Origin: a virus
Length of the DNA: 64,000 nucleotides
IMG/VR virus record: IMGVR_UViG_3300045988_087270
Coordinates: 1 to 64,000 of that record
Strand: one strand, 5' to 3'
Part shown: positions 6,345 to 58,317 of the stretch, piece after piece
Layout: each line of letters starts with the position of its first letter
Numbering within the stretch: the stretch's first letter is position 1
The notes under the pieces: model-generated
Seen by the model: only the letters and a program-made list of their open reading frames with translations
Told to the model about the DNA's origin: nothing
Database searches by the model: none
Made by a program: the position numbers and the translations under genes

Positions 6345-6387
6345 AGTTATAGAAATATAGATAAAAAGCTATATGATAACAATACTG
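6345..6387 (+). repeat. conserved intron 3' terminal element, copy 1 of 3
   Basis: tatagaaatatagataaaaagctatatgataacaatactg; copies at 35016-35058 and 22660-22702 with covarying stem positions. Confidence 0.7.
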
Positions 6388-7275
6388 AAAACAGTCACCG
6401 CAAAGAAACTTTGTAATCATTTACAGCTTCCTGTAATCTTAGTACAATCAATGGGCAATGATACTAATGATAAATTAATAAAATATTTATCTACAGCCAT
6501 TGATTTTGACTGTATCTTCTTCTTTGATGAATATGAGAAAGAATTTAAAGATTCTTCTGATGTTCTTTCTTTTATGGATGGCACTTATAACTCTATTTAC
6601 CGTAAGATATTTTTACTTACTACTAATGAGTTGAATGTAGATTCAAATCTTCTTGGAAGACCTTCTAGAATAAGGTATAAAAAGTCTTTCGGTAATCTTT
6701 CAGAGGAAGTTACTAGAGAATTTCTTAATGACATCTTGGAAGATAAAACTGCTATAGAAAAGGTTATAAAATTAACTCATTCTATGAATATTATTACTAT
6801 AGATTTGATTAAAGCTATAGCAACTGAAATTAATATTCATGGAATAGAGTCTCTTCCTGATATTAAAGAAACCTTTAATATTGAGTTTTCTAGTTTCGCT
6901 TATTTATATAGGGAAATACAACTTAGACATTGTGATTTAAAGTTTACTCCTGAAAATATAGATAATATATTGAAAACTTATAATAAGTATAAGGAACTTA
7001 AAAAGAAAGGTTGGGAGAAGTATTCTGATGAAGAAAAAATGTTCGATGCTAAATGGTCTGCCATATTTAGTGAGGATTATGGTTCTACTATTGAAGATAA
7101 AGAGTTAAAATATCTGAAACCTGGAGACTATTTTGATGATCAGCGTATATTAATGGTAAATGTTAAAGAAAAGTATATAGTAACTATGACTGATTATGGA
7201 TATATTATAATATATTTAATTAATAGTTGCTATTCTGCAAGTAAAGCTACAGGTCTTATAAATTATAAATTATAA
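6388..7275 (+). CDS. AAA+ ATPase, exon 2
   Basis: Begins KTVTAKKL; Walker B FFFDEYE, sensor-1 LLTTN, GRPSRIRY arginine-finger region. Confidence 0.6.
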   Translation, partial: KTVTAKKLCNHLQLPVILVQSMGNDTNDKLIKYLSTAIDFDCIFFFDEYEKEFKDSSDVLSFMDGTYNSIYRKIFLLTTNELNVDSNLLGRPSRIRYKKSFGNLSEEVTREFLNDILEDKTAIEKVIKLTHSMNIITIDLIKAIATEINIHGIESLPDIKETFNIEFSSFAYLYREIQLRHCDLKFTPENIDNILKTYNKYKELKKKGWEKYSDEEKMFDAKWSAIFSEDYGSTIEDKELKYLKPGDYFDDQRILMVNVKEKYIVTMTDYGYIIIYLINSCYSASKATGLINYKL

Positions 7276-12213: not shown

Positions 12214-12294
12214 GTCTAGATAGCCAAGTGGTCAACGGCAGCAAGCTGTTAACTTGCCCCGAAAGGTTCCTAGGTTCGAATCCTAGTCTAGGCG
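12214..12294 (+). tRNA. type-II tRNA (Ser-like body, G73) with anticodon loop cuGUUaa
   Basis: Acceptor gtctaga/tctaggc, T-arm ctagg-ttcgaat-cctag, 3-bp D-stem with 11-nt D-loop, 12-nt variable arm, anticodon stem gcaag/cttgc; positions 34-36 read GUU. Confidence 0.55.
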
Positions 12295-12302
12295 CAATGA
12301 TA

Positions 12303-12365
12303 TATGCCTCTTATTTCTAAGGTTCATTACCTTCTCGAAAAGAAATGTGTACACAAGAGGCGCCT
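12303..12365 (+). other. structured RNA-like element (7-bp closing stem gcctctt/aagaggc, internal hairpins)
   Basis: Nested stems atttct/agaaat, aagg-ttcatta-cctt (T-arm-like) and palindrome gtgtacac, immediately 5' of the next tRNA. Confidence 0.3.
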
Positions 12366-12442
12366 GGAGTATTAAGCCCTGTTGGTAAGGGAACTAGACT
12401 GTCACTCTAGTAAAACTAAGGGTTCGAGTCCCTTATATTCCG
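12366..12442 (+). tRNA. tRNA-Asp(GUC), non-canonical D-arm
   Basis: Acceptor ggagtat/atattcc (one G-U), anticodon stem ctaga/tctag with loop cuGUCac, T-arm aaggg-ttcgagt-ccctt; the D-stem pairs only ccc/ggg. Confidence 0.5.
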
Positions 12443-12587
12443 CAAATAATGGAGAGCACCTAGCGTTTAACTGGGTAGTTGTTAGAGGTAGCGGTGGCAA
12501 TCCACGAGTATGCCTGATAGCTCAATATATTATTAGAATATGGTCACGATAGTTTGCCCGTCTAATGCCATATTTGCCTTTATTTAA

Positions 12588-12659
12588 GCTTCAATAGCAC
12601 AGTGGTAGTGCAGCATTCTTGTAAAATGCAGGTCGTAGGTTCAAATCCTACTTGAAGCT
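12588..12659 (+). tRNA. tRNA-Thr(UGU)
   Basis: Canonical cloverleaf: acceptor gcttcaa/ttgaagc, D-stem gcac/gtgc, anticodon stem gcatt/aatgc with loop cuUGUaa, T-arm gtagg-ttcaaat-cctac. Confidence 0.8.
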
Positions 12660-12668
12660 CTCTAATAT

Positions 12669-12740
12669 CGTGGGTTGTAGCAGTGGTAGCTTGTTTGTCT
12701 CATAAGCAAACGGTCATCGGTTCGAGTCCGATACCCACAA
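12669..12740 (+). tRNA. tRNA-Met or Ile2 (CAU)
   Basis: Acceptor cgtgggt/acccaca (1:72 C-A mismatch), anticodon loop cuCAUaa, T-arm atcgg-ttcgagt-ccgat. Confidence 0.65.
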
Positions 12741-12746
12741 CAAAAT

Positions 12747-12830
12747 TGTCTAGTATGTGAAGTGGTCAAACATGACTGACTGTAAATCAGCTGCTATTTA
12801 GCTTCGGGAGTTCGAATCTCTCCTAGACAA
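12747..12830 (+). tRNA. tRNA-Tyr(GUA), type II
   Basis: Acceptor tgtctag/ctagaca, anticodon loop cuGUAaa, long variable arm gctatttagc, T-arm gggag-ttcgaat-ctctc. Confidence 0.7.
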
Positions 12831-12850
12831 CTAATTAAAAAATAAATAAT

Positions 12851-13327
12851 ATGGAAAAAACTTTTAATTATCAATCTGATGCAAATTTCTATGATAAAAA
12901 GGATTTTATTATAGCTGTTTTAAAAAGAAAAATAAATAGTTTTAAAGAGTATGATGCTAAAAGAAAAAAGCATTATGCTGGACTAGAACAAAAAATTGGA
13001 GAATTAGAATCCTATATAGATGAATTAGAGAACGGACTTAGTATAGAATCTTTAAGTAATAAAATTCAATCTTTAGAAAATGAGATTGAGAAACAGAATC
13101 TTAAAATTAGAGAGTTAAGAGCTAAAGTTAATATATCTTTATTTGATGATACTAAGTCTTTTAGAGAATTAGAATCTATGGCAAATAATTTAAAAGACTT
13201 TAATAGCATGAAATTAGCTATTAAAGATCTTAGAAAACGGCTTAAAGATAACAAAAAAACTATATCTGATTTAATATATGAATTAACACAAGCTAAACTT
13301 AAAATAAAACAATTAACTGGAGAGTAA
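12851..13327 (+). CDS. coiled-coil hypothetical protein
   Basis: 158 aa; heptad-rich LENE/IEKQNLKIRELRAK. Confidence 0.5.
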   Translation: MEKTFNYQSDANFYDKKDFIIAVLKRKINSFKEYDAKRKKHYAGLEQKIGELESYIDELENGLSIESLSNKIQSLENEIEKQNLKIRELRAKVNISLFDDTKSFRELESMANNLKDFNSMKLAIKDLRKRLKDNKKTISDLIYELTQAKLKIKQLTGE

Positions 13328-13337
13328 TCTCCAATTT

Positions 13338-13411
13338 GGGGCGTCGGCTCAAGTGGTCAGCACCTGCTTTGCACGCAGGCATTCTTAGGAGTTCGAATCT
13401 CCTACGCTCCA
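13338..13411 (+). tRNA. tRNA-Ala(UGC)
   Basis: Acceptor ggggcgt/acgctcc with the G3:U70 identity pair, anticodon stem cctgc/gcagg with loop uuUGCac, T-arm aggag-ttcgaat-ctcct. Confidence 0.8.
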
Positions 13412-13431
13412 CTATTAAATTAAATATTTTT

Positions 13432-22380: not shown

Positions 22381-22702
22381 ACTGTAAAAGCGGGTCATAT
22401 ACCCGTTAATTACGATGCCGTTCCGATAGAGGAATCTTCGGAATTATTATCGAGCAAAATCGGTGGAAGCCCTATAGAGGGTAATACCGAGGTAATAGAA
22501 GAAATTAAAGAATCTTCTACACCGTACAGCATAGAGAATGAACCTAATGAATAGTCTAGTTATTAACTAGACTATTTTTATTAGAATATAATTTCTCCAC
22601 GAGTGTTCGATGCCCCAACTGAAATAAGTGGGTAAAAATTTATGCGGGGCTTATTAGTAATAGTAAGAAGTATAGATAAAAAGCTATACGATAACAAGAC
22701 CG
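22381..22702 (+). mobile_element. ORF-less self-splicing intron (probable group I) at GGT^AAA of the helicase P-loop
   Basis: 322 nt; exon ends in U and intron ends in G; 3' ~45 nt homologous to the other two introns of this family; internal palindromic hairpin tagtctagtt/aactagacta. Confidence 0.6.
22660..22702 (+). repeat. conserved intron 3' terminal element, copy 3 of 3
   Basis: agtatagataaaaagctatacgataacaagaccg; stem gtatag/ctatac covaries with the other copies. Confidence 0.7.
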
Positions 22703-23860
22703 AAATCCAGAATAGGACTAAACTGTATTAAAACAGTGCTAAAACATTTTCCACAATATCGAGTACTAATAATTGTACCAACAGAAACTTTACAAAAGCA
22801 ATGGTATGGACATATAGACTCTAATGGATTAGGATTAAATTGTGATGTACAAATAATAAACACTGTAATAAAACATCCTGCCAAATATGATCTTTTAGTA
22901 CTGGATGAAGCTCATAGATATGCAGCTGAGACTTTTGTAAGATTATTTGAAGTAGTAAAATACCAATTTATCTTAGGTCTTACAGCTACTTTTGAGCGTC
23001 TTGATGGTAGGGATAAAATATTAGCACAATATTGTCCAGTAATTGATACTATTGATATTAATACTTGTCTTGCAAATGGTTGGGTTAGTCCATATAAAGA
23101 ATATCTAGTCTTAGTAAATGTTGATAATTTAGAAGAATATGAAAAAATAAATAAAGAATTCATTTCTCATTTTGAATTCTTCGGATTCTCTTGGGAGTTA
23201 GTTAATAAATTAGCTGGTCCTATGGGTTGGCGAAATAAACTACTCCTAAGAGATTCTATGTGTAGTGACCCTAACAAAAAATCTGAAGTATTACAAAGTA
23301 TAAATTATCATGCTATCAGATTTTGGGCTACTATGCACGAAAAGAAAGCTTTCATAAATAATCACCCAAAGAAAATTGAAATAGTAAAGAAAATTATAGA
23401 AGCTAGGAAGGATAAAAAAATAATAACTTTTGCCAATAATATTAAAATGGCAGAAAAAATTCCTAATGCTACTGTATATTCCAGTAGAACTTCTAAAAAA
23501 AGAAGTGCTACAGCTATTGAAGATTTTAACTCTGGAAAAATAACTTTATTATCTACAGTAAAAAAAGCTGATGAAGGGCTTGATGTGAAAGGTCTTTCTG
23601 TAGCTATTATATTTGGATTAGATAGCTCGACTACTAGAGCTTGTCAACGAAGAGGAAGATCGATTCGATTTGAACAAGGTAAGACAGCAGAAATATTCAA
23701 TATAGTATTGAATAGGACTCAAGAAACTAAGTGGTTTTATGATTCTCATAAAGGAGATTCTTTTATAACTATAGACGAATCAGAATTGGATAAAGTGTTA
23801 CAAGGTAAAGACTTTACTCCAGGTGAAAAGATAGTTCCTAAATTTGATTTTAGATTCTGA
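22703..23860 (+). CDS. SF2 DEAH-box helicase, exon 2
   Basis: Motif Ia PTETL, motif II LVLDEAH, motif III LTATFER, motif VI QRRGRSIR. Confidence 0.65.
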   Translation, partial: KSRIGLNCIKTVLKHFPQYRVLIIVPTETLQKQWYGHIDSNGLGLNCDVQIINTVIKHPAKYDLLVLDEAHRYAAETFVRLFEVVKYQFILGLTATFERLDGRDKILAQYCPVIDTIDINTCLANGWVSPYKEYLVLVNVDNLEEYEKINKEFISHFEFFGFSWELVNKLAGPMGWRNKLLLRDSMCSDPNKKSEVLQSINYHAIRFWATMHEKKAFINNHPKKIEIVKKIIEARKDKKIITFANNIKMAEKIPNATVYSSRTSKKRSATAIEDFNSGKITLLSTVKKADEGLDVKGLSVAIIFGLDSSTTRACQRRGRSIRFEQGKTAEIFNIVLNRTQETKWFYDSHKGDSFITIDESELDKVLQGKDFTPGEKIVPKFDFRF

Positions 23861-32559: not shown

Positions 32560-33786
32560 ATGAAACAAACAACAAAATCTTCTTATATTAAGTTCTTCAA
32601 TGATGCAATTAATAATAATCGTTCTTTAAAAGATCAATGTATTATATCAGAAAAAAATATAAATACTGTATATATGACAATGAAAAATCTTAGAAAGAAA
32701 GAAAATAAAGATGAAGATGATAAGAAGATATTGGAATTATATGACAGACTAAAGAATACTAAGAAAAAAGAAGTAAAAAAAGATACAGATAATGCTTCTA
32801 ATACTTGGGAAATAAGAGACGAAGAGACTGGTAAAATTACTGGATATAAGTTTGAGATTTTCAGAAGAAATAAGCCCGCAATCACAGGAGTCTTTACTAG
32901 AAACGAAATGAATAGTGTATATAGAATGTATACCTATTACGGTTCTGGTTTAACCCAGCAGATTGTCAGCAGATATTTCCCAGACTATTCTCTTATTGAC
33001 TTTAAAAGAATTTTACGAGCTTTTAATATTACTAAAGCATCCTCTCCATTTGCTCCTCATATGTATGAAGAATATACTGAGGATGAATTAAAAGAAATGC
33101 ATCTTAGAGAAAAAGAAAATGATTTCTTAAAAAGAATAGAGAAAGATGAAGTAAAGGATTTAAGAGCTTTAGTTACTAAGTTGACTAAGAAAACTTCTAA
33201 GTCTTTAAATAAGGAACTTATAGAAACTACTATTAAAAATACAGTAAAGGATTATAAAGAACTTCCAGTAAATATTAATAATAAAGAAACAAAATATCCT
33301 GATTTAATTATATGGTTATCTGATTTACATATCGGAGCTTATAATGCTAAGTATAGTAGTTTTGTACAGTTACCTTCTTATGATGTTCCAGAAATTAAAT
33401 CTAGATTATCTAGAATTGTAGAATCTTTTGTTGGACAAGAATATCATTCTGTATATGTAGTTAATCTTGGAGATTCTATTGATGGGTTCAATAAAGAAAC
33501 TACTAGAGGAGGTCATGAACTTCCTGAGATTCTTGATAATAAAGAAATTAGTGAAGCATTTATAGAATGTATGATGGAGTTCTTTGCTACTCTTACAGTA
33601 AAAGTAAAAAGCAAAGATTTTAATTATCTTTCTATAGGAGAATCTAATCATGGTGGGGATTTTGAATGGTTAAATCAAAAACTTTTAGCTGCGTATTTAA
33701 CTAAATATAATGTTAAGAGTTATATTAGTAATTATCCTATTGATAACTTTATTATTGGAGATCATCAATTCCTGTATGCTCACGGT
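32560..33786 (+). CDS. calcineurin-like metallophosphoesterase, exon 1 (ends ...FLYAHG)
   Basis: DLHIG, LGDSIDG and ESNHG motifs. The frame stops right after GGT(33786). Joining to AAA(35059) continues KDNNSQ... with the downstream GDLH and GHTK motifs. Confidence 0.55.
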
Positions 33787-33853
33787 AGAGTTTTGTAATA
33801 AATTTTAACATATTTTAATTATTATATTTCCGTGGAAGAGTTATAATACTCTC

Positions 33854-34906
33854 ATGGAAATATTAAATAATTTTTTAAATTCAGAATTAAAGCTAACTGC
33901 TTTTTGTAAAGCTAATAAAGTTAGCCGAGATTATTTAGAGCAATTATTAAAAGATAATAGCTATTCTTATAGTGTATATTTAACGGGTATAACTATTAAG
34001 AATTTAAATTTAGCTATAAAAGATTATATTAATTCTGATGCAGGATTACGTGCTTCCGCTATAAAATATAATATTGGAACACAAACTTTAAAAGCTCATT
34101 TAGTAACTTTAAATCTTTATAATCCTAATAAAAAGGGTAAAAAAGAAAAATCTTACAATGAACATTTTTTTGACAGTATAGACACTGAAGAAAAAGCTTA
34201 TTGGTTAGGATTTATATTTGCTGATGGTTATATTTATAGTTCCCCTCTAGATACATCCAAAGAAAGGATAGATTGGAACTTTGAACTATGTGCTAAAGGG
34301 GATGACAAAGAACATATGGAAAAATTTGCAAAAGCTATTGGATACAATAAAGAATTACATGTTACTAAAGCTGATAAATATGGACATACTAGATGTAGAG
34401 TATGTTTATCCAGTGAAATTTTATGGAAACAACTAAATTCTTTAGGATGTACTCCTAGAAAGAGTTTAACATTAAAATTTCCTGATGAAAGTATTTTTAA
34501 ATCCAAAGATTTAATTAGACATTTCATTAGAGGTTATTTTGATGGTGATGGATGTATTAGCTATGCTAATAAAGAACATACTATTCCAGTATATCAAATA
34601 CTTGGAACTAAAGAGTTTTTAAAGGTTATTATAAGTTATTTAAATATAGAAGAAACTTTATTTCATAATCATAATAATAAAAAAGAAGTTACTATGTATA
34701 TACAGGCTTCTAATAGAAAGGCTATGTATGTATTACATAAATTATATGATAATTGCTCAATCTATTTAAATAGAAAATATGAAAGATTTATTTATTTTTG
34801 CCGTATATTTGAGAAATCAAATATGTTAAAACAAACCAATATCGGTGAAAGCTGTGATGCTAATACCGAGATAACTACAGAAACTAAAGAGTCTGCAGCA
34901 TCGTAG
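33854..34906 (+). CDS. LAGLIDADG homing endonuclease (intron-encoded, intact)
   Basis: YWLGFIFADGYIYSS and RGYFDGDGCISYA motifs; full-length homolog of the HE at 5185-6237. Confidence 0.7.
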   Translation: MEILNNFLNSELKLTAFCKANKVSRDYLEQLLKDNSYSYSVYLTGITIKNLNLAIKDYINSDAGLRASAIKYNIGTQTLKAHLVTLNLYNPNKKGKKEKSYNEHFFDSIDTEEKAYWLGFIFADGYIYSSPLDTSKERIDWNFELCAKGDDKEHMEKFAKAIGYNKELHVTKADKYGHTRCRVCLSSEILWKQLNSLGCTPRKSLTLKFPDESIFKSKDLIRHFIRGYFDGDGCISYANKEHTIPVYQILGTKEFLKVIISYLNIEETLFHNHNNKKEVTMYIQASNRKAMYVLHKLYDNCSIYLNRKYERFIYFCRIFEKSNMLKQTNIGESCDANTEITTETKESAAS

Positions 34907-35015
34907 AGCGTAGAACTTGAACCTGAGAAATCAGAATAAAATAGTTCCAAGAGTGGTTTGCCCTCAGCACGTAAAGGTGGAGGTGAATATGTACGCCGAG
35001 CTATAGTAAATAAGA

Positions 35016-35058
35016 AACTATAGAAATACAGATAAAAAGCTGTATGATAACAAAACTG
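35016..35058 (+). repeat. conserved intron 3' terminal element, copy 2 of 3
   Basis: ctatagaaatacagataaaaagctgtatgataacaaaactg. Confidence 0.7.
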
Positions 35059-35358
35059 AAAGATAATAATTCTCAAACTAGACAATTTCCTCTTACTTTA
35101 AATCCTCAGACTGAATTATTCTTTGCTAATTATATAGCAGAAAAAGGTATATGTAGTCCTCATATTTATGTAGTAAAAGGTGATTTACATAATTATGCTT
35201 ATACTACTGGTAAACAGTTTGATTATATTTCAGTAGGTAGTATGTATGGTAGTAGTAATTATATTACAGCTAACTTTGGACATACTAAATGGAGTATTAA
35301 TTATACTATTGTAAAAGATAAAGATATTTTGATGGGAACTATTAAAGGAAATAATTAA
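35059..35358 (+). CDS. calcineurin-like metallophosphoesterase, exon 2
   Basis: Begins KDNNSQ...; carries the VVKGDLH and FGHTKW phosphoesterase motifs. The track ORF 35044 includes 15 nt of intron. Confidence 0.55.
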   Translation, partial: KDNNSQTRQFPLTLNPQTELFFANYIAEKGICSPHIYVVKGDLHNYAYTTGKQFDYISVGSMYGSSNYITANFGHTKWSINYTIVKDKDILMGTIKGNN

Positions 35359-37623: not shown

Positions 37624-39363
37624 ATGTTATTTATGGTAATAAAGAGAGACGGAAGTAAAGAAGAGTTTAACAGAAACAAAATTAGAGATGCTGTATTAAA
37701 AGCTTTTGGAGTTACCCAAAATTCTAATAAGACAATGGACGAAGATATTTACAGAGCAGTTACTGAAATAACTAATTCTGTAGTAGAGACTGAAGATCAA
37801 TCTATTGAAGATATTCAAGACCAAATTGAAGAACTTTTAATGGATTTAGGATATCACGACGTAGCTAAAAAATATATTCTATATCGTAAAGAACGTGAAG
37901 ATATTAGGAATCATGCTACTAGAGATATTGAATTTATTCATAATTTTGTAAAATCTGATAATACTGCTAATGCTACTATTGACGACAATAGTAATGTAGG
38001 AACTAAAGGTATTGGAGTATTAAACGCTGAAATACATAAAGTCGATAATAAACTTACTAATACAGAATGGTGGGAAAGTTTTGTAAAGAAGAGAGACCCT
38101 AACTTTAATATAAAAGTTATGAGGAATGATTTTAAAACTATTTTATATCCTCATGATTCATCTTCTCAAGTAGGAGAACCATATTGTATGGCAGCTTCTA
38201 TGTATCCTTTCTTGTTGTCTGGATTAGAGAAATTAGGAGGTAAATCAGCAGTTCCAAAGAACCTTGATTCACTCTGTGGTATTTATGTAAATCTAAACTT
38301 TGCATTAGCTTCTGAAATTAAAGGAGCAGTAGCTACTCCTGAGTTTCTGATGTATATGGATTATTTCTGTAGAAAAGAATGGGGAAATAATTATTATCTT
38401 AAACCAAGTGTAAGAATAACTACAGATTACTGTATAAAACAGAAAACTATTGGTAGTCAAATTGATCAATATTTCCAACAAGTAACTTATTCTATTAATC
38501 AAATAGCTGGAGCTAGAGGAATGCAGTCTCCATTTACAAATTTTTCATTCTTCGATAAATATTTCTTTGAAGGTATGTTTGGAGAATTTGTATTTCCAGA
38601 TGGAACAAAGCCAGAATGGAATTCTACTAATTGGTTACAAAGACGTTATTTACATTGGTTAAACCAAGAAAGATTAAAATGTATTTTAACATACCCTGTA
38701 TGTAGCTATGCTTGCTTAACAGATAAGGAAGGTAATTTTAAAGATTTAGATACTTTCCATTTTATATGCAATGAATATGCTCAAGGAAATTCTTTCTTTA
38801 CTTATTTATCTCGTAGCGTAGATAGTTTAAGTTCATGTTGTCGTTTACAGAATGCAGTACAGGAAAATACATTTAATACTACTAATGGTCAAATAGGTGT
38901 AATGACTGGTAGTAAGAATGTCATCACTCTTAATTTAAATAGAATTATTCAGGATTGGCAGCATACTTGGTCTGATTATAAAGACCATATTGATGTTAAT
39001 ACCAATAGATGCTGTTTCCCAGTAGATTGGATTACACATAAAGATTTCCAAGAAGGAATTAAGAAATATATAGAAAATATTCTTGAAAGAGTTTATTTGT
39101 ATCAATATGCTTATAACGACTTAATGCATTGGTGCAAAGACCATCATTTATATGCTGCTTATGATGCTGGTTTTATTAATCTTGATAAGCAGTATTTAAC
39201 TATTGGAATTAATGGCTTAAATCAGGCTGCTGAATACTTAGGAATGGAATGTAATAATAATATTTATTATAAGACATTCTGTAGATTAATATTCAGTACC
39301 ATAAAAGAGCAGAATAAGAAACATAAAACTAAAACAGCTCAATTTAATACTGAACAAGTGCCT
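37624..39363 (+). CDS. nrdD: anaerobic ribonucleoside-triphosphate reductase NrdD, exon 1
   Basis: N-terminal ATP-cone (VIKRDGSKEEFNRNKIRDAVLKAF); large class III RNR body; ends ...FNTEQVP. The ORF continues only 10 codons into the intron before a stop. Confidence 0.7.
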
Positions 39364-40625
39364 AGACGTGTGGGCACTATAAATCTCTTTTAATTGACTC
39401 GAAACTCCTTAAATTAAGGACAACGAGGGGCAAGCAATAATTATTATAATTATGGGCAGCCTGAGAGACTAAATAAAGAGAATTTTAAATAAATTTATTT
39501 AAAGTATATAATAGTCCGAACTCTATGGTAACATAGAGAGAGAAAATCGAAGAATTTTCTCCGTTAATAATATAATATACAAAATAATTTTGATTCCCGA
39601 GGATGAGGGTCTATAATTGTTCTATAACAGTAAATATAAAAATTATAGTTTATGGAACAAAAATTAGACATTTTAAAAGTAAGAAATTTAGTAAAAGAAA
39701 AAAGAGTAAGAAAAAGAATACCAGATGAATGTACCTGTGAAGTATGCGGAAGTACTAAAGGAGAAGGGAAACTTAGAAGATTCAATGATTATATAGTTTG
39801 TGAAAAACACTATGACCAATTAAATAAATATGGTAAAATCACCGATACTTCTAAAAGAAAACACAAAAAGCCTTTAGAAAAATGTAGTATTTGTGGAGGT
39901 TTAAAAATGGCTTCTTTTGAAGGAACCCCATATTGTCGTAAACATTATATCCAAATAACTAGGCATGGGGTTATTAGAGATAGAACTATCTATGATGCTA
40001 ACGAATATGTTATTCATGAAGATTATGTAGAAGTAAAATGTTTTGATAAAAATGGTAATTATAAAGCTAGCACCAAAGTTGACTTAGAATTTTTACCTGA
40101 TATTAAAAAACATAAAATCTATATAAGAAAAAGTGGTATTAAAGAATATGCAGCATTTTCAGGAATAGAAAATGAAGAAGGTTCTGGTAAAAAATACTTT
40201 GTACATAGATATATAATGCATCTTCACGATAAAAAATATAATATTGATGAAGTAGTAGACCATATCAATGGGGATTCTTTAGATAATAGGATTTCAAATC
40301 TTAGAGTTTGTACTCAAAAAGAAAATTCTTATAATAACAGAGGAACAAAATTAAATCAAAAAATTAAAGGAGTAAACTGGCTTAAAGTAAATAAAAAATG
40401 GACGGCTAGAATAATGTACAATTATAAAAGTATACATCTTGGAAATTATTTTACTTATGCTGAAGCTGTATTAGCTAGAATAAAAAAAGAACAAGAATTA
40501 TTTGGTGAATATGGTCCTAACAAAGATTTATATTATATTATTAATCATCCTTCGCCAATAGAGGAATTAAATAAAATATTAGAAATTCCTTCTATAGAAG
40601 GAGCGTAACAGAATGGCAGAAAGCG
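39364..40625 (+). mobile_element. group I intron 1 of nrdD with HNH-AP2 endonuclease ORF
   Basis: P1: exon gtgcct pairs with IGS gggcac at 39373-39378. R-like gagagacta, S-like aagtatataatagtccgaac, P9 hairpin ctatggtaacatagag. Ends ...gtaacagaatG. Splicing gives FNTEQVP|AESASVKLY. Confidence 0.7.
39652..40608 (+). CDS. HNH-AP2 homing endonuclease (intron-encoded)
   Basis: HNH_3 motif VDHINGDSLDNRISNLRVCTQKEN, AP2-like KGVNWLKVNKKWTARI...; paralog of 42035-42805. Confidence 0.65.
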   Translation: MEQKLDILKVRNLVKEKRVRKRIPDECTCEVCGSTKGEGKLRRFNDYIVCEKHYDQLNKYGKITDTSKRKHKKPLEKCSICGGLKMASFEGTPYCRKHYIQITRHGVIRDRTIYDANEYVIHEDYVEVKCFDKNGNYKASTKVDLEFLPDIKKHKIYIRKSGIKEYAAFSGIENEEGSGKKYFVHRYIMHLHDKKYNIDEVVDHINGDSLDNRISNLRVCTQKENSYNNRGTKLNQKIKGVNWLKVNKKWTARIMYNYKSIHLGNYFTYAEAVLARIKKEQELFGEYGPNKDLYYIINHPSPIEELNKILEIPSIEGA

Positions 40626-40674
40626 CTTCAGTAAAACTTTATAATAGAGATAAGAAGGATGGGTAGACTCAATG
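40626..40674 (+). CDS. nrdD: NrdD exon 2 (49-nt mini-exon, AESASVKLYNRDKKDG)
   Basis: Matches the conserved class III RNR segment AES.S..(F/L)...DK; flanked by intron ends ...cagaatG and 5' exon-end U with IGS gcccat at 40684-40689. Confidence 0.6.
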
Positions 40675-41406
40675 CCCATGTAAAACTCTTACTGATTGAC
40701 TTGGAAGTCCGGTGTGGCGACAGGGCGCAAGCTGTAGCATTTTATATGTTACTTGCAGCGTGAACGACTGAGTGTAAGAGACTTATAAGGATAATATGTG
40801 AATATTGCTACTTATAGGTATGCGACAGTCTGAACTATACAAAGTATAGAGAGAATTCGAAGAAATTCTCCATTTATTTAGTGGGACAATTTTTTATTTT
40901 GACCCAGGGATAAAAATGGTTATATTAGTACCAGATAATAAAATATTAATTTAAACTAATTTTAATTGTATGGATACTAAAATTTGTAGCAAATGTGGAA
41001 GAGAACTTCCACTAGACCGTTTTGAATCTGGAAGAAATCAATGTAGAGATTGTCGTAATGCTAGACGCAGAAAATTAAGACAGGAGCATCCTGAAAAACA
41101 TAGATAGGAAGCTTCTAAAAGGCAAGAAGAGCAAACTAAATGGTTATATTCTCTAAAAAAGAAATGTTTAATATGTGGTGAAACTGAACCAGTATGTTTG
41201 GATTTTCATCATAAAGATCCTAATGAAAAAGATTTTACTATAGGTAAACATAGAAATAAAAGTAAAGAGAATTTAATGAAAGAGATAGAAAAATGTGTTT
41301 GTGTTTGCGCTAATTGTCATAGAAAAATTCATGCTGGTATTATTAATCTAGAAGATTACCTGAATAAATCATTTCCTCAAAGCCCAGAGGAAAGCGTAAC
41401 AGAATG
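40675..41406 (+). mobile_element. group I intron 2 of nrdD with HNH endonuclease ORF
   Basis: P1: exon atgggt pairs with gcccat. R-like gtgaacgactgag, S-like gcgacagtctgaac, P9-like hairpin ctatacaaagtatag. The 3' end gcgtaacagaatG is identical to intron 1. Confidence 0.65.
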
Positions 41407-41407
41407 A
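40970..41407 (+). CDS. HNH endonuclease with in-frame TAG at 41105-41107
   Basis: CSKCGRELPLDRF...CRDC zinc ribbon, then TAG, then CLICGE...CANCHRKIH HNH motif in the same frame. The terminal TGA uses the first nucleotide of exon 3. Confidence 0.55.
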
Positions 41408-41745
41408 CTGGGTTCCTACAGACACTAATCTGTATGCTAGTTATATATTTAAACCTAATGATACACATATAAGTATACTTGATAAAATTATACTTCATAG
41501 TTCTGAGTTCGCTGCTGATGAATTAGATGGAGGTTCTGCTTGTCATCTTAATTTATCTGAACATTTGAGTCAGAAACAATATGAGTATTTACTTAAATTT
41601 ATGGCTAAAGTAGGTTGTAAATATGCTACTTTTAATATTCCTAATTGTGAATGTGAAGAGTGCCATTTTATAGCAAAACAGCCGTTTAGTAAATGTCCTA
41701 AATGTGGCAGTACTCATGTAAGTCTATGGGATAGAATTATTGGGT
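41407..41745 (+). CDS. nrdD: NrdD exon 3 (Zn ribbon plus start of glycyl-radical motif, ends ...WDRIIG)
   Basis: YWVPTDTNLYASYIFKPND...CECEECHF...CPKCGSTHV..RIIG matches the NrdD C-terminus (T4-like CPKCGST...RITGY). Confidence 0.65.
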
Positions 41746-42809
41746 GAACGTAAACGCCCCACATAATAGTAATATTATGTAGTAAACGCAGAATATGCTG
41801 GAAACCCCTTAGAGCCTAAGTATACTTGAAATATTTTCAAGGATGAACAAGTCTTAGGATTGGGCAATCAGCAGACATATAAATTGTTAATTTATGTTAA
41901 AGTGTTAAGATTTATACAAGTCTTGTATATACTTAACATATATAAAATTTATGGGTCTCAGAGACTACCAATGCGCAACCTATGGGTTGATAGTATAGTC
42001 CACTCCCTTATTATTAACATAATTATTTAACAATATGAGAAAAATAACAGAAGAACGCTTTTGTGAAGTATGTGGAGTATCATCAAAATTTAAAAAAGTT
42101 AGTTTTAATAAACTTTCTGGAAAAATACTATGTGAAAAACATATGGGACAATTTAGAAGATTTGGGGAATTTAAAGATACTAATTCAAGAGGAGTATTTG
42201 ATGATAATGAAATTAGATTAAAAGATAATTTTGCGGAAATAGATACTTATGATTCTCATGGAAATATTATGGAGACATTTATTCTAGATATAGATGATGT
42301 TCCAAAATTAAAGGGTCATAAATGGAGAACTGTTTATAAAAATAATAAACCTTATTTATTTACAGGAAACCAGAAAAAAGAACGTATCTATTTTCATAGA
42401 TTGGTACTTCCTACTGATAAACAAGTTGACCATATTAGTGGAGATACTCATGATAATAGAAAATGTAATCTTAGAGAAGTAACTATCCAAGAAAATATGT
42501 TAAACCTACAAAAGAAATCTAATAATACTTCGGGTATTCGGGGGGTATCTTTTGATAAAAAACGAAATAGATGGAAAACTGATTTTACTTTTCAAAAACA
42601 ACGTTATTATTTAATGGATAGGAACCTAAAAGAAGAAGCCGTTTATCAAAGGTATCTTTGTGAGAAATTAGTATTAAAAAATTTTCGGAATGAAGCTAAT
42701 GATGCTCTGTATAATTCTTATATTGATAAAATTTCAGAGGAACGTAAAGCTGAAATAAAAAAGTATGTTATTAATAAATTAAATATCTCGAAAGAGAGGG
42801 TATAAAAGG
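41746..42809 (+). mobile_element. group I intron 3 of nrdD with HNH-AP2 endonuclease ORF
   Basis: R ctcagagactacc and S gatagtatagtcc boxes at ~41960-42000; intron ends in G. Splicing restores RIIG|YLTKISNWSAARQLE, the glycyl-radical consensus. Confidence 0.65.
42035..42805 (+). CDS. HNH-AP2 homing endonuclease (intron-encoded)
   Basis: VDHISGDTHDNRKCNLREVTIQENM HNH motif, GIRGVSFDKKRNRWKT AP2-like; paralog of 39652-40608. Confidence 0.65.
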   Translation: MRKITEERFCEVCGVSSKFKKVSFNKLSGKILCEKHMGQFRRFGEFKDTNSRGVFDDNEIRLKDNFAEIDTYDSHGNIMETFILDIDDVPKLKGHKWRTVYKNNKPYLFTGNQKKERIYFHRLVLPTDKQVDHISGDTHDNRKCNLREVTIQENMLNLQKKSNNTSGIRGVSFDKKRNRWKTDFTFQKQRYYLMDRNLKEEAVYQRYLCEKLVLKNFRNEANDALYNSYIDKISEERKAEIKKYVINKLNISKERV

Positions 42810-51593: not shown

Positions 51594-52799
51594 ATGACAA
51601 AAAAGGAAAAATTTATTACTCAAGCAATTGAAAAATTTGGTGGCAAATTTGATTATTCTAAAGTAACAGATATTAATAATAAAGAAATAGATAAAATTAC
51701 AATTATATGTCCTATACATGGTGAATTTGAGACTACTCCTAAGTCATTTTTAATATCTAAATATGGTTGTAAAAAATGTGCTAATCAACAAAAAGGAAAA
51801 CATTATCGAACAGATAAAAATAATTTAAGTTCTGTTGATACACATATTCCACATATAGAAAATCCTATTATATCAAAATCTTTAGTCGTGGGTACTGTAT
51901 ACTGTTTTATTAATAGTATTAATGGTAAAAAATATATTGGAGAAACAGTAAAAAAAGATTATACTGATAGATTTAATGAACATAGAAGTAAAAGTGAAAG
52001 AGGAGTAGTAACTTATTTCTATAATGCTATCAGAAAATATGGATGGGATGCTTTTAATAAATATATCCTATACCAAACTGAACCATATAAAGATACTGAA
52101 GAGAATAGAAAAAAATTAAATGATATTGTAAATAAAAAAGAGATTGAATTTATTAATAAATACAACACTACAAATCCTAATTTTGGCTATAATTTAACAA
52201 AAGGAGGAGACGGAGTTTTAGGTTACCATTTTTCTAAAGAAACCAGAGAAAAAATGAGTAAATCTCATCAAGGGGAAAAACATTGGAATTATGGTAAAAG
52301 AAATAAAGGTAAATCTAGAACAATTTTACAATTTGATTTAGATGGAAATTATATAGCAGAGTTTCCATCTATGGCAGAAATTACACGACAATTAGGATAT
52401 AGAGCTAATAATGTATGTAGATGTTGTAATAATTTAATAGATTCTTATATGGGATATATTTGGGTACGAAAAGATGATTATTATGAAGGCTATATTCAAA
52501 AATACAAATCAAGAGCAAAATGTAAATCTAATGATAAAGAAGTTTTACAATATACTTTTTTAGGAGATTATGTAGCTTCCTATATAAGTTGTGCAGAAGC
52601 AAAAAGAACTTTAAAAATGGGATATAGCCCTTCAGGAGCTGCTTCTGGAACTGATTTTTCAGCAGGAGGTTATATATGGATATATAAAAAAGATTTTACA
52701 GAAGATTTATTAAAAGAAAAATTAGAGCTTGTAAAAAGTAGCCGCAGTTATAAAAAAATTGTGAGTAATCTTAAACAATCTTGCTCTAATATACAATAA
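51594..52799 (+). CDS. GIY-YIG homing endonuclease (free-standing, Seg/I-TevI-like)
   Basis: GTVYCF...KKYIGET...RFNEH GIY-YIG core followed by NUMOD-like repeats (ETREKMSKSHQGEKHWNYGK). Confidence 0.6.
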   Translation: MTKKEKFITQAIEKFGGKFDYSKVTDINNKEIDKITIICPIHGEFETTPKSFLISKYGCKKCANQQKGKHYRTDKNNLSSVDTHIPHIENPIISKSLVVGTVYCFINSINGKKYIGETVKKDYTDRFNEHRSKSERGVVTYFYNAIRKYGWDAFNKYILYQTEPYKDTEENRKKLNDIVNKKEIEFINKYNTTNPNFGYNLTKGGDGVLGYHFSKETREKMSKSHQGEKHWNYGKRNKGKSRTILQFDLDGNYIAEFPSMAEITRQLGYRANNVCRCCNNLIDSYMGYIWVRKDDYYEGYIQKYKSRAKCKSNDKEVLQYTFLGDYVASYISCAEAKRTLKMGYSPSGAASGTDFSAGGYIWIYKKDFTEDLLKEKLELVKSSRSYKKIVSNLKQSCSNIQ

Positions 52800-52810
52800 T
52801 TTAATTATAT

Positions 52811-53500
52811 ATGACGAAAATTTGTGCACTAAGTGACCTACATGGTCATCTACCAAAAATTGAACCTTGTGAGTTAGTATTAATAGCAGGAGATATTGTT
52901 CCTTTAAATATTCAATTTGATAATACTGCATCTACCTTATGGTTTTTAGATGAGTTTACAAAATGGATTGATTCTCTTTCTTGTGATGAAGTTATTATGA
53001 TTGCAGGTAATCACGATAAACTTATAGAAAGAGCTTCTTTTATAATTCATGCAGTAGAATCTAAAACTGATTTTAAACTTACATATTTGTCAGGAACTAC
53101 TTATGAATATGTGGCTAGGAATCTTGAACATTATAAAATATATGGCTCTCCTTTCTGTCATAAGTTTGGTAACTGGGCATTTATGCAAAATGAAGAATGG
53201 TTAAAAGGTTATTATGATAATATTCCAGAAGATACTGATATAATTTTAACTCACGATACTCCAATGTTAGGAGATTTAGATTTATTACCTCCTAGTCAAT
53301 GGAATCCAAAAGCTATTCATGCTGGAGGTAGATCTTTAGCAAATGCTATTTGTAGAGTGCAGCCTAGATATGTATTTTGTGGGCATTTACATACTTGTAA
53401 AGATAAATATTTAAAATTAGATAATACAGAGATATATAACGTATCTATATTAGATAATGAATATAAAGAGATTTATAAACCATTATATTTAGACATCTAA
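52811..53500 (+). CDS. metallophosphoesterase
   Basis: SDLHGH, AGDIV, GNHD and GHLH motifs. Confidence 0.6.
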   Translation: MTKICALSDLHGHLPKIEPCELVLIAGDIVPLNIQFDNTASTLWFLDEFTKWIDSLSCDEVIMIAGNHDKLIERASFIIHAVESKTDFKLTYLSGTTYEYVARNLEHYKIYGSPFCHKFGNWAFMQNEEWLKGYYDNIPEDTDIILTHDTPMLGDLDLLPPSQWNPKAIHAGGRSLANAICRVQPRYVFCGHLHTCKDKYLKLDNTEIYNVSILDNEYKEIYKPLYLDI

Positions 53501-55293: not shown

Positions 55294-56711
55294 ATGATTT
55301 ATTTAGTTACCAAAGCTAAAACTTTATTTAAATCTTCTAAATATGAATGTATTTCCATAGAGAAAAGTAAAGAAATTATTAATTCTATGGGAAAAATTAG
55401 AGGGTTAGATACTGAAACTAGGGGATTAAATCCTCATACTAAAGCATTATTAACTGTTCAGATAGGTACTAAAGAAAATCAAGTAGTAATTGATTGTACT
55501 ACTATAAATATTTTGGAATATAAAAATATATTAGAAGATTCCGATATTTTATACATCTTAGCTAATGCTAAATTTGATACCCAATTCTTCTTTAAACATA
55601 ATATTATATTATCTAAAGTATGGGATGTAATGTTAGCTGAAAAAGTTAGATATTTGGGATATCCTAAAGGTAGTTTTCATGCTGACTTACAGACCCTTGA
55701 ATATAAGTATCTTAATAAACATATGGATAAAACTGTTAGGGGTAAAATTACTAAAGTTGGTCTAATTGAAGAAGTAATAGTTTATGCAGCTAATGATGTA
55801 GTAGATTTGGAAGATTTAATGAATGCTCAAATAAAAGCTTTAGAAAAAGAAGATTTGGTAAAGGCAGTACAATTAGAGAATAGATTTGTTATTCCATTGG
55901 CTTATATGGAATGGTGCGGAGTAAAATTAAACGTAGAAAAATGGAAAGCTAAAATGGTAAAAGATGCTAAACGTTTAAAAATTGCTCTAAATAAATTAAA
56001 TGATTGGGTAATAGAACATTATGGAAATGACTCTAGATTTACTAAGGTAGATTTACAAGGAGATTTATTTTCAGGATTTAATACTGACCCACAGTGTACT
56101 ATAAATTGGAATAGTGGAACTCAAGTAATTCCATTATTTAAAGCTATTGGAATAAATACTTCTACTATAGATAGTAAAACAAAGAAATTAAAAGATTCTG
56201 TAGATGCTAAATTATTAAAGCCTCAAGCTAAGGATTTTGAAATTCTTCCTATTTATCTAGATTATAAGGAAGCTCAAAAAGTATGTTCTACTTATGGACA
56301 AAACTGGTTAGACCAAATAAATCCAGAAACTGGTAGAGTATATACTAAGTTTAATCAGTTAGGTACTAATACTGCTAGAATATCTAGTGGCGGAAAAGAT
56401 AAAAATGCTAAAATAGAATATGTAAATTTTCTCAATCTTCCAGCAGACCCAGAAACTAGAAGTTGTTTTATTGCAGAGAAAGGTAATTCTTGGATTTCAA
56501 TAGACTACTCAGGGCAAGAAAGTTTCATTATGGCTTCTATTTCTAATGATAAAGCTTTAATACATGAATTAATGGAGGGAAGTGGGGATTTACACTCTCT
56601 AACTGCTTATATGAGTTATCCTGATCAAATACCAAGAGATACAAAAATAACAGAAATTAAAGAAAAATATCACCATCTTAGACAAGAAGCTAAAGGCATA
56701 GAATTTGCCAT
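55294..56711 (+). CDS. family A DNA polymerase, exon 1
   Basis: 3'-5' exo motifs (LDTETRGL, YAANDV), pol motif A IDYSGQESF, DLHSLTA, motif B start RQEAKGIEFAI; the ORF stops 2 codons into the intron. Confidence 0.7.
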
Positions 56712-56983
56712 TAATCCTTAAATTATTACAATTTTGTGGCACTCTATGGAAACATAGAGAATAAAAAATTGGGTGAATTGCAGGAACTTAAGGAAAATCT
56801 GCAGCCAAGCCAACCTTTAACAAAGTTGGAAGGTTCAACGACTAACTCTTGAAACTTCGTAAGAAGAATATAATAGAGACACGAGCGCCCAACACCTAAA
56901 CTATAAAGTAAGGTGATGAAATAGTCTAGCCTATATGGTAACATATAGAGCCTTGGATAAAGAGCCAAGGGTTAATACACGCG
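56712..56983 (+). mobile_element. ORF-less group I intron (td/IA2-like) in polA
   Basis: P1: exon gccat pairs with IGS gtggc at 56736-56740. P gaattgcagg, Q aatctgcagccaag, R gttcaacgactaac, S aaatagtctagcc, P9 hairpin ctatatggtaacatatag. Ends in G. Splicing gives AKGIEFAI|NYGGDF. Confidence 0.75.
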
Positions 56984-57452
56984 AAATTATGGTGGTGATT
57001 TTAATACTATTCACCGAAACAAAGGCATCTCTATAGAGGAAGCTAAAAAGATATATGAAAATTATATGTCAGGTTTCTCAGGATTAGCTAAATATCAAGA
57101 ATATTGTAGGAAAATAGTCATGGAAAAAGGCTATATACTTCTAAATCCTATAAGCAAATATAGAGCACATATATATGATTTTGAGTCTCTACGTTCAATG
57201 CAAGAAAAAATGCAAGATAGAGAATTTTGGAAGTATTATAGAGAAATGAAACGAGAATCTCCTAATTGTGATACAGTACAAGAAGTACGAGATTTCTTTA
57301 AGAAAAAAGGTGAGTGTGAAAGGAATAGTATAAATTATAGAATACAGCATACTGGAGCTTTATGTTATAAAGTAAGTATGATTTATTTCTTTAGATGGAT
57401 AGTAGAAAATAATCTTTTTAATAAGGTTTTAATTACTATTACCCCCTACGAT
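56984..57452 (+). CDS. family A DNA polymerase, exon 2
   Basis: Completes motif B (NYGG...EEAKKIYENYMSGFSGLAKY) and continues to ...KVLITITPYD. Confidence 0.65.
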
Positions 57453-58317
57453 AAATAATCTTGTCGTAGTAAAACGATGTTAATTGCTTGGAACTCCTAA
57501 AGATTTAATTACTAAATTATTGAAATAATAAACCAGTAAAAATATTAAATATGATTTTACCTCAGTTAAAAGAAATGGACAATAAGCAGCTTTATAATTT
57601 TACAAGAGAACAAACTCAAGTATTTCTAACAGGACTGCTAGGTGATGGATGTATATCTACTACAAATAGTGGTAGTTATATTTATACTACAAATTGTAAG
57701 CATCTTGAATATTTAGAATTTAAAAAGAAATTATTAGGTAAAGGAAATATTAGACTCCAAGAAAGAAATGGCTATAGTCAAACTCCTATATATACTATGT
57801 ATGGGGGAGCTTACCCAGAATTATTTGAGTTTAAAGAATTTACTGTTCAAGATGTTATTGAAAACTTAGATTTACTTGGGTTAGCATTATGGTTTTACGA
57901 TGATGGTAGCCTTCATAAAAGAGATTTACATTATAATTTAAATACTCAAAAGTTCCCAAAGTATATACAAGAAGGAATTTTTATTCCATGGTTTGATTCC
58001 TTAGGCATTAAAGCTAATTTAAGACATGATACAAAAAGAGGAAAAGAATTGTATTATTTAGGAATTAATAAATATGAAGGAGCTAATATTATTAGTGAAA
58101 TACTATCACGTTATCCATTAGATTGTTACTCTTATAAATTATGGAGTTCAGAGACTATCCTGAAATGGAGTAAGCTGCAAGAGCAGGTGAAAAGCATCGA
58201 TGAAAATCTTACTAATAGGCAATTAGCTTATAAGTGGAGGTTTTTATAAGATATAGTCCGAACCTATATGAAAGTATAGGAGAATATATGGAATCGATAT
58301 ATTCGTAACAATATATG
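57453..58317 (+). mobile_element. group I intron in polA with LAGLIDADG ORF
   Basis: P1: exon acgat pairs with IGS gtcgt at 57464-57468. 3' S box aagatatagtccgaacc and P9 hairpin cctatatgaaagtatagg (GAAA loop). Ends ...tatatG. Splicing gives ...TPYD|EINCEAP.... Confidence 0.65.
57551..58249 (+). CDS. LAGLIDADG homing endonuclease (intron-encoded)
   Basis: LTGLLGDGCIS and LALWFYDDGSL dodecapeptide motifs. Confidence 0.7.
   Translation: MILPQLKEMDNKQLYNFTREQTQVFLTGLLGDGCISTTNSGSYIYTTNCKHLEYLEFKKKLLGKGNIRLQERNGYSQTPIYTMYGGAYPELFEFKEFTVQDVIENLDLLGLALWFYDDGSLHKRDLHYNLNTQKFPKYIQEGIFIPWFDSLGIKANLRHDTKRGKELYYLGINKYEGANIISEILSRYPLDCYSYKLWSSETILKWSKLQEQVKSIDENLTNRQLAYKWRFL

Follow-up and report, generated by a model that had tools for sequence, protein, structure and literature searches.

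The 64,000-nucleotide (nt) stretch of viral DNA studied here (positions 1-64,000 of IMG/VR record IMGVR_UViG_3300045988_087270, referred to as the window, in whose numbering all window coordinates are given) contains a gene, predicted to encode a metallophosphoesterase-fold protein, that is interrupted between a glycine and a lysine codon. This raises the question of what the insert is and why its relatives occupy the same sequence, GGT^AAA, in unrelated genes. Boundaries, reading frames and predicted RNA structure indicate that positions 33787-35058 are very probably a mobile group I intron which would be removed by splicing and which carries its own homing endonuclease. The element itself is of an ordinary phage intron type and its interest lies in the site pattern seen at the level of the family. 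The interrupted gene is organised as follows.

32560-33786, plus strand: exon 1, encoding the N-terminal domain and motifs I-IV of the metallophosphoesterase domain and ending in ...YAHG.
33787-35058, plus strand: predicted group I intron, copy B of its family, 1272 nt, with 5' end AGAGUUUUG and 3' end ...AACUG, the terminal guanosine (omega-G) being 35058.
33854-34906, plus strand: open reading frame (ORF) for a LAGLIDADG homing endonuclease (HE-B) of the double-motif type, 350 amino acids (aa), recognised by Pfam and PHROG.
35059-35358, plus strand: exon 2, starting with AAAGAT (KDNNSQ...) and containing GDLH; its first 8 nt form P10.

Counted from the start of the host ORF at 32560, the gene extends to 35358; with the insert removed, a protein of 508 aa is encoded. 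Exon 1 ends in ...FLYAHG, the last glycine codon, GGT, occupying 33784-33786, and beyond this codon the host reading frame meets TAA after 4 codons (33796-33798). The insert is preceded by T and its last base is G. Its boundaries are fixed independently of any motif reading by an intron-less homologue in MT835492.1, the closest GenBank phage (human faeces, 121.6 kb), which can be aligned with the window as far as 33785 and from 35073 onwards, 15 bases lying between, and which reads ...CACGGA AAA GAC... over the junction. The sequence at this intron-less target allele is CACGGAAAAGACTCGAGAAAT and that of a window-like intron-less target is CACGGTAAAGATAATAAT. A tblastn search of MT835492.1 with the conceptually spliced 508-aa protein gave a single-piece match of 97% identity, and uninterrupted homologues of about 500 aa, with HGK invariant, are numerous in a large protein database. 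Excision restores an open frame as in the intron-less alleles, which is the behaviour expected of a group I intron. The split of the phosphoesterase at GGT^AAA, with KDNNSQ resuming at 35059, had been placed correctly in an earlier note on this DNA. No terminator-like sites were found on the plus strand between the exons.

The structure of the RNA was read by hand from alignments of family members and tested on a MAFFT alignment of 15 distinct members. The core helices follow one another in the group I order P3-P4-P5-P6-P7-P3'-P8-P7'-P9 with a P3/P7 pseudoknot, are supported by covariation, and are linked by A-rich joining segments (J3/4 and J8/7, also J4/5 and J5/4). In copy B the predicted elements, all on the plus strand, are the following.

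33782-33790, plus strand: 5' strand of P1, made up of exon ACGGU (U.G wobble at 33786) and intron AGAG; partner 34796-34804.
34792-34804, plus strand: internal guide sequence, consisting of UUAUUUUU (P10 strand, partner AAAGAUAA in exon 2) and then GCCGU (3' strand of P1).
34805-34824, plus strand: P2 hairpin with a GAAA loop; 8 of 8 pairs with compensatory changes.
34832-34837, plus strand: 5' strand of P3, CAAACC; partner 34955-34960; 6 of 6 pairs compensatory, 98.9% paired.
34842-34869, plus strand: P4-P5 domain, P4 being UCGGU/ACCGA and P5 AGC/GCU; part of the covariation test.
34870-34902, plus strand: P6/P6a; 8 of 10 pairs compensatory.
34906-34912, plus strand: 5' strand of P7, consisting of G, a bulged A and GCGUA; partner 34992-34997; 100% paired.
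34913-34947, plus strand: P7.1 (with P7.1a), an additional hairpin separating P7 from P3'; 100% paired.
34955-34960, plus strand: 3' strand of P3, GGUUUG, pairing with the 5' strand of P3.
34961-34985, plus strand: P8; part of the covariation test.
34992-34997, plus strand: 3' strand of P7, UACGCC.
35001-35045, plus strand: P9 (35001-35023) and P9.1 (35026-35045), the P9.1 loop AUAAAAAG being invariant.
35046-35058, plus strand: 3' tail, conserved GAUAACAAAACUG, ending in omega-G.

P1 of copy B comprises 5 bp (ACGGU with GCCGU) and a 4-bp extension, and the exon T at 33786 pairs within GCCGU at 34800-34804 to give the U.G pair at the splice site that is characteristic of group I introns. P10 comprises 8 bp; across members, its mean length was 3.4 bp for cognate guide and exon pairs as compared to 1.5 bp for non-cognate pairings. 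The G-C pairs of P7, presumably the guanosine-binding helix, are invariant, while the pair closing over the bulged base is A-U, G-C or C-G depending on the member. Between P7 and P3' there is one covarying hairpin, P7.1 with an optional P7.1a, which resembles the arrangement in subgroup IA introns; a separate P7.2 was not seen. Standard pairs were formed by 96.6% of the cells in the 15-member alignment, as against 34-46% when the 3' partners were slid by 1-3 columns; changes on both sides occurred in 46 of 65 pairs, and none of 500 column shuffles matched the observed values. The compact copy C (322 nt) folds with a minimum free energy z of -8.3. The conserved tail across the family alignments reads GAUAACAAnnnG and is followed by the terminal G, which could be assigned in 146 of 148 family matches.

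Several observations weigh against this assignment. No group I intron (RF00028) was found by Rfam at its gathering score in the whole window, or at E<=10 in copy B or in the 322-nt copy C, these searches reporting only tRNAs and noise. In addition, the structure was derived from the same sequences on which it was tested, which favours it in the slid control, and splicing and cleavage are both deduced from sequence. RNAalifold, applied to the raw MAFFT alignment, recovered the structure in part. Every group I feature that can be examined in a sequence is present, and we read the failure of Rfam as a problem of model sensitivity and not of mechanism.

Other identities of the insert have to be weighed against these findings. 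A free-standing endonuclease gene might have split the phosphoesterase into two translated pieces or inactivated it without any splicing, and both the lack of an Rfam match and an in-frame ATG upstream of exon 2 (ORF 35044-35358) would fit such a situation. This ATG, however, lies within P9.1 and the 3' tail, the flanking RNA contains a group I core that is complete, covaries and has canonical boundaries, the junction is base-exact when compared with the uninterrupted allele, and the break falls inside the invariant HGK motif. We consider the split-gene explanation very improbable and rejected it on these grounds. LAGLIDADG domains occur in inteins too, and a related contig has an intein in nrdD, but the host frame stops at 33796-33798, four codons into the insert, the endonuclease ORF has its own start in another context, and Pfam returned no Hint or intein match; the intein was likewise rejected. 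A group II intron was discarded as well, the ends being 5' AGAGU and 3' CUG instead of GUGYG...AY, with no group II match in Rfam at E<=10. The probability that the insert is either an intein or a group II intron is close to nil.

If the insert is a group I intron, the gene would be transcribed through it and the RNA would fold into the group I core. P1 would be formed by exon ACGGU and guide GCCGU, the U.G wobble marking the splice site; P10 would be formed by AAAGAUAA of exon 2 and UUAUUUUU, and the core by P2-P9 with the P3/P7 pseudoknot, the bulged P7 and the extra P7.1. In a transesterification initiated by guanosine, the intron would be cut out up to its terminal G and GGT ligated to AAA, by which the invariant HGK motif would be restored. 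The endonuclease encoded in the P1 loop would probably drive DNA-level homing into intron-less alleles at the cognate site.

HE-B contains two LAGLIDADG motifs with acidic residues in one chain (WLGFIFADGY and IRGYFDGDGC) and was recognised by Pfam LAGLIDADG_3 (30.8 bits as compared to a cut-off of 22.5, 3.6e-7) and by PHROG 4645, 'endonuclease' (1e-49). The proposal that the insert is a LAGLIDADG-encoding intron is borne out, and the intron can be specified as group I. The ORF occupies the P1 loop, downstream of the 5' splice site and upstream of the guide sequence, and its last ~105 nt (~35 C-terminal codons) double in frame as the internal guide sequence, P2, P3, P4, P5 and P6, so that its stop codon, UAG at 34904-34906, coincides with the J6/7-P7 junction. 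A conserved Cys-Arg of the endonuclease ORFs is encoded by the guide sequence. The start codon is itself part of a predicted structure.

33826-33861, plus strand: start-codon hairpin, enclosing the AUG at 33854-33856; -14.7 kcal/mol, z -4.6.

In the homologous hairpin of the related intron in contig L041 the outer stem is kept, and the inner stem is different yet complementary. By analogy with T4 introns, this suggests that the hairpin may restrain translation of the endonuclease.

The host gene product is predicted to be a metallophosphoesterase-fold protein, and probably a nuclease. D255-x-H257, G304-D305-x-x-D308, N363-H364, H408-G409-K410 and G450-D-L-H453 are invariant in 20 homologues; in the window protein they read D255-L-H257, G304-D-S-I-D308, (E)S-N363-H364, H408 and G450-D-L-H453, which is a calcineurin-like signature, and the intron splits H408-G409|K410. 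An AlphaFold2 model compared with the PDB by Foldseek gave top matches that were all calcineurin-like phosphoesterases with E ~1e-6 (Vps29, PolD DP1 exonuclease, Rv0805, GpdQ and Mre11). Among PHROGs the protein matched phrog_22398 (1e-22, function unknown) and phrog_284, 'exonuclease' (1e-11), and distant Cellulophaga-phage homologues found by tblastn carry a calcineurin-like phosphoesterase annotation. Speaking against this assignment, the model is of moderate quality (predicted local distance difference test 75, predicted template modelling score 0.53), Pfam gave no match at E<=10 either for the spliced protein or for its C-terminal 276 aa, and PDB sequence searches with the single sequence and with a 20-sequence profile returned nothing useful. 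It was only by structure prediction and Foldseek that the fold was settled. The earlier identification of the host as a phosphoesterase agrees with the invariant motifs and the Foldseek matches; of the two motifs thought to follow the intron, GDLH is invariant, whereas 'GHTK' is not conserved, homologues having GNTKW. A second, Pfam-recognisable Metallophos gene lies at 52811-53500 (region 51594-53500), and the ORF directly upstream of it is endonuclease-like, with NUMOD1/NUMOD3 domains and matches to homing endonuclease and GIY-YIG families in PHROG.

By BLAST and nhmmer, the last ~270 nt of the insert recur twice more in the window. A family profile found exactly three strong copies with nhmmer, at ~6127-6389, 22413-22704 and 34794-35061 (E 1.8e-67 to 3.3e-64), so the shared 3' domain described before is real. 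The two further copies are these.

5077-6387, plus strand: family copy A, at Walker A GSG^KT of a gene for a P-loop ATPase.
22381-22702, plus strand: family copy C, 322 nt and ORF-less, in a superfamily 2 (SF2) helicase gene, at motif I TGFG^KS.

Copies A, B and C belong to one family and share GGT^AAA in three unrelated genes, as had been claimed. The additional similarity between copies A and C (GGAxxTGGT^AAAxC) is also as described, the junctions being GGATCTGGT^AAAAC and GGATTTGGT^AAATC, and is explained by the fact that both sites are Walker A motifs (GxGK[ST]). Within the window an uninterrupted endonuclease ORF is found in copy B only; that of copy A (HE-A), which is 42% identical to HE-B, contains a TAG in frame, and copy C lacks such an ORF.

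Searching with a 25-nt motif taken from the conserved 3' end gave 39 loci in IMG/VR, and with a slightly relaxed motif 101 metagenome loci and three contigs of metagenome-assembled genomes (MAGs) were obtained, the three found in a scan of a genome collection being assigned to Lachnospiraceae, Aeriscardovia and Coprovivens. In total there were 148 motif matches in the window and in phage, metagenome and MAG contigs, among which exon 2 begins with 75 different 12-mers. LAGLIDADG is the cargo of most members. L070, at the helicase site, carries a GIY-YIG endonuclease (Pfam 2.7e-10), L034 an HNH in the P5 loop (weak match) and L006 an HNH-like ORF in P7.1, while copy C, L014, L024, L046 and L126 are ORF-less. 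The P1-loop ORFs of both endonuclease families enter the core in the same frame and share a ribozyme-encoded tail, ...SSELLS.KIGE..D.N.E.... ORF-less copy C, read in frame with exon 1 (22381-22554), gives ...VNYDAVPIEESSELLSSKIGGSPIEGNTEV..., which matches the C-terminal tail of the L070 GIY-YIG endonuclease, VNVEAVPIEKSSELLSGNIGENPTVEDNTEI.

About 25 junctions were curated by reading-frame continuity and protein motifs; those of L029, L003, L016 and L023 were either truncated or not resolvable. All curated junctions follow GGT except that of L034 (~1000-1040), where the 5' exon seems to end in GGA, with A at -1. This case speaks against the rule; L034 may be splicing-defective or its junction mis-assigned. 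Walker A Gly^Lys accounts for ~19 of the curated junctions, with the consensus GGNNNNGGT^AARWC, in at least 12 gene contexts including ATPases and SF2 and UvrD-like helicases; the others include HG^KD of the phosphoesterase, IQG^GDSGP, ELG^SRT, ATG^VGKT and CAGGT^AGAAGA. The last glycine codon was GGT in 19 of 19 Walker A junctions; among the glycine codons of the window, 42% are GGT and 45% GGA, and GGTAAA occurs 65 times on both strands of the 64 kb. Chance does not explain the shared GGT^ site. Nor is the rule an artefact of collection, as members were retrieved by a motif located in P9.1 and the 3' tail.

The guide GCC is invariant in the family alignment, and GGU pairs with GCC in all curated members but one. 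Two or more bases 5' of GCC covary with exon 2 in P10 (UU for AA, CU for GG or AG, AC for GU). With the guide fixed, the family is found only at exon GGU, and with GCC invariant while the cargo varies, the shared site tracks the ribozyme and not one endonuclease. The guide may be frozen in endonuclease-bearing members because it encodes the conserved Cys-Arg. The HG^K site of the phosphoesterase is a look-alike of the commonest site, Walker A Gly^Lys.

Uninterrupted Walker A motifs with GGT^AAR occur in the window at 24694, 47995 and 52308, and with GGA^AAR at 25647 and 63250; the GGA of the latter two P-loops could not pair with the guide sequence. The site at 47995, in a Dda-like helicase gene (GGTTGTGGT^AAGTCGCTT), is identical to the site that is filled in L082 and L121 and is therefore an empty target allele.

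At the phosphoesterase site, presence and absence of the intron are polymorphic, the site being empty in MT835492.1 and filled in the window and in L041-L043. The latter are pig- and human-gut contigs whose host protein is ~61% identical to that of the window and which have a related LAGLIDADG intron at the same junction, CACGGT^AAAGAT; the nucleotide identity to the window is 83% for the intron as compared to 69% for exon 1. Window and MT835492.1 (L001 4226-4242) are nearly identical over +-90 nt around the junction, the main differences being GGT/GGA at -1, one at -8 and 8 mismatches at exon-2 +6..+14; further mismatches are scattered, with three at -45 to -31 and one at -60 to -46. In the +6..+14 patch the window resembles the distant intron-plus allele of L041 (AAAGATAATAAT as compared to AAAGATATTAAT). 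The patch looks like a co-conversion tract, or a matched P10 or endonuclease-site patch, and its position next to the junction suggests DNA-level homing. Judging from these alleles, the endonuclease probably drives homing into intron-less alleles at the cognate site, which is the likeliest route there.

How the family came to occupy new sites is a different matter, and the earlier note had proposed ectopic homing driven by the endonuclease. Homing mediated by the endonuclease is plausible at the cognate site in view of the co-conversion-like patch, but endonuclease-driven ectopic homing is not specifically supported, and a single enzyme that recognises GGTAAA is not the best explanation of the hexamer, since GGT is the exact complement of the invariant guide (GCC, with U.G at -1) and the cargo varies. 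In its general form the idea supposes that a LAGLIDADG enzyme of relaxed specificity cuts look-alike DNA, that repair copies the intron, and that the match to the guide is a secondary adaptation or filter. It is in line with the LAGLIDADG ORF of most members, with Walker A sites that share more than the hexamer (GGNNNNGGT^AARWC), with the exon patch at the cognate B site, and with the proposal, one of several, that ectopic sites are reached through relaxed specificity of the endonuclease (PMC3984707). However, the same ribozyme lineage sits at GGT^ with GIY-YIG (L070), with HNH (L034, L006) or with no ORF; with HE-A and HE-B only 42% identical, one enzyme cutting all three window sites is unlikely; and CAAGGT^GGAGAC, TTAGGT^AGTAGA and CAGGT^AGAAGA have only GGT in common with the rest. 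Furthermore, GGT was used in 19 of 19 Walker A junctions though GGA is equally common in the genome, a bias which the RNA pairing rule predicts and which a 20-bp protein-DNA interface need not give. We regard ectopic homing as possible but rather doubtful.

Alternatively, the excised intron might reverse-splice into any transcript in which GGU precedes a few guide-complementary bases and be fixed in DNA by reverse transcription and recombination, the endonucleases being interchangeable passengers that help only at cognate sites. The invariance of GCC over ~25 curated sites, in contrast to a P10 that changes together with exon 2, the swapped or missing cargo, and the ribozyme-encoded C-terminal tail common to all ORFs argue for such RNA-guided spread. 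Against it, no reverse transcriptase is evident in the window, any DNA route followed by survival of splicing-competent insertions gives the same pattern, and the guide may be frozen merely by encoding Cys-Arg in the endonuclease ORF; we regard it, like ectopic homing, as possible but rather doubtful. For the route to new sites, we give reverse splicing and rare DNA events filtered for splicing competence about equal weight. The more specific notion that the frozen guide (GCC after U-rich bases) makes Walker A GGT^AAR a generic landing pad, with RNA-guided hopping between unrelated P-loop nucleoside triphosphatase genes and occasionally to look-alikes such as the phosphoesterase HG^K, whatever endonuclease is carried, is conceivable, though the odds are against it.

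The Walker A region of unrelated ATPases is also a recurrent site of inteins with LAGLIDADG endonucleases. P-loop inteins are spliced at the protein level and are in frame, whereas the elements described here are RNA ribozymes with a nucleotide pairing rule (GGU with GCC). Phage group I introns with endonucleases are classic, LAGLIDADG cargo being less usual there (PMC3984707). The group IA2 introns of T4 td, nrdB and nrdD (sunY), with I-TevI-III, resemble copy B as self-splicing group I introns (here predicted) in conserved coding motifs of phage nucleotide and DNA metabolism genes (described in part in PMC3984707). They also have extra helices between P7 and P3', a looped-out endonuclease ORF and a translation start within RNA structure. 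In contrast, the T4 endonucleases are of the GIY-YIG or HNH type and lie in P6a or P9.1, while here a LAGLIDADG endonuclease is encoded in the P1 loop and overlaps the guide sequence to P6; sequence similarity between the T4 introns and copy B is not detectable, and copy B has no Rfam match.

Bastillevirinae, SPO1 and Twort-like phages similarly contain many IA-like introns per genome, which split DNA polymerase and other replication genes. According to a survey of Bastillevirinae (PMC11878797), most of these introns have loop-encoded endonucleases, mostly HNH, with one LAGLIDADG case; a search of its text found neither a shared guide sequence nor a site rule for Walker A nor the term 'insertion site'. 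The genomes of human-gut Jug phages are also dense in group I introns and endonucleases, which split terL, nrdD and DNA polymerase genes, and splicing was confirmed there by metatranscriptomes (PMC12880540). Those introns differ in that they were found with subtype covariance models, average ~206 nt and rarely carry LAGLIDADG (17 vs 505 HNH), and no family-level target rule is described for them (PMC12880540). Related introns at different sites whose 5' exons match the guide are known from nuclear ribosomal DNA group I lineages, where the pattern was taken as circumstantial evidence for RNA-guided ectopic insertion (PMC1299323, cited in PMC3984707). Those cases, as reported there, lie within ribosomal RNA genes, whereas here many unrelated phage protein-coding genes are concerned, centred on one protein motif. 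The review PMC3984707 notes that direct evidence for reverse splicing is lacking and describes promiscuity of endonucleases as inefficient. In the full-text literature searched we found no group I family that was linked to codons of Walker A or whose guide was fixed across protein genes, which is not proof of novelty.

For annotation, the phosphoesterase, ATPase and helicase genes of the phage should be treated as intact and not as fragments, and the standard Rfam model misses an intron family that is widespread in gut phages, as the 148 matches in IMG/VR, metagenome and MAG contigs and the window illustrate. For the study of how group I introns reach new sites, the family offers many independent insertions in protein genes. 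It combines one fixed guide, an adaptable P10 and interchangeable endonucleases with filled and empty alleles within one phage group (for example the empty sites 24694 and 47995), and this combination makes the competing models testable, for instance by the immunity of GGA as compared to GGT alleles. If the RNA-guided landing-pad interpretation were true, the family would be the first protein-gene system for a direct test of ectopic group I transposition, and synonymous GGA alleles would be predicted to be immune.

In-frame stop codons are a recurrent feature of the family ORFs. The endonuclease ORF of copy A (5185-6237) has its TAG at 5890, conserved in relatives, and stops in other members are of one type per lineage and conserved (L011, L021, L002, L033; L029, L062, L072, L133, L138). 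TAG occurs in A-type and L002-type ORFs, one L002 TAG aligning with Gln of HE-A ('INHQNETKF'), and in five other loci TGA takes the place of the conserved Trp in EEKAYWLGF. From these alignments, recoding in the host phages seems at least as likely as decay. No suppressor tRNA was found in the window; a cluster of six tRNA genes at 12214-13412 is for Asn, Asp, Thr, Met, Tyr and Ala.

Further genes of the window appear to be interrupted. The PolA (family A DNA polymerase) gene is split, ...AKGIEFAIN / YGGDFNT..., with a fragment at 55294-56721 and a gap at 56722-56990. The gap folds well, has a weak match to the family profile (56847-56965, E 2e-5) and is a probable fourth, weakly related intron (~56.72-56.99 kb) for which no splice sites giving a terminal G as well as the right frame could be assigned; further downstream there is a LAGLIDADG_2 ORF (57551-58249). 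The NrdD gene (anaerobic ribonucleotide reductase, ATP-cone; region 37624-42805) seems truncated at 39393 and is followed by two HNH_3 endonuclease ORFs (39652-40608 and 42035-42805), probably further introns or free-standing endonucleases; its homologue in L041 carries an intein. In L005 (reverse strand, ~3348-4016), an intein-like ORF (LLAGLIDSDG ... VCHNS) lies upstream within the gene whose intron site is IQG^GDSGP, and this gene houses two different selfish elements. In L033 (reverse strand, 1-260; a 4165-nt IMG/VR contig), the 3' end of a family intron (...GATAACAAAACTG) directly precedes its own 5' part (GAAATAAGTTTTTGAAATTGG...), an arrangement which is either tandem or circularly permuted, or an assembly artefact. 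Finally, the half of the ribozyme comprising P3'-P8-P7'-P9-P9.1 matches, at 68-85% nucleotide similarity, regions that are mostly without annotation in phages of distant taxa, among them crAss-like cr118_1 and cr6_1, ~88-kb Staphylococcus phages, Streptococcus phages and Clostridioides pCD1602_4, so that the ribozyme lineage extends far beyond the gut contigs studied here.

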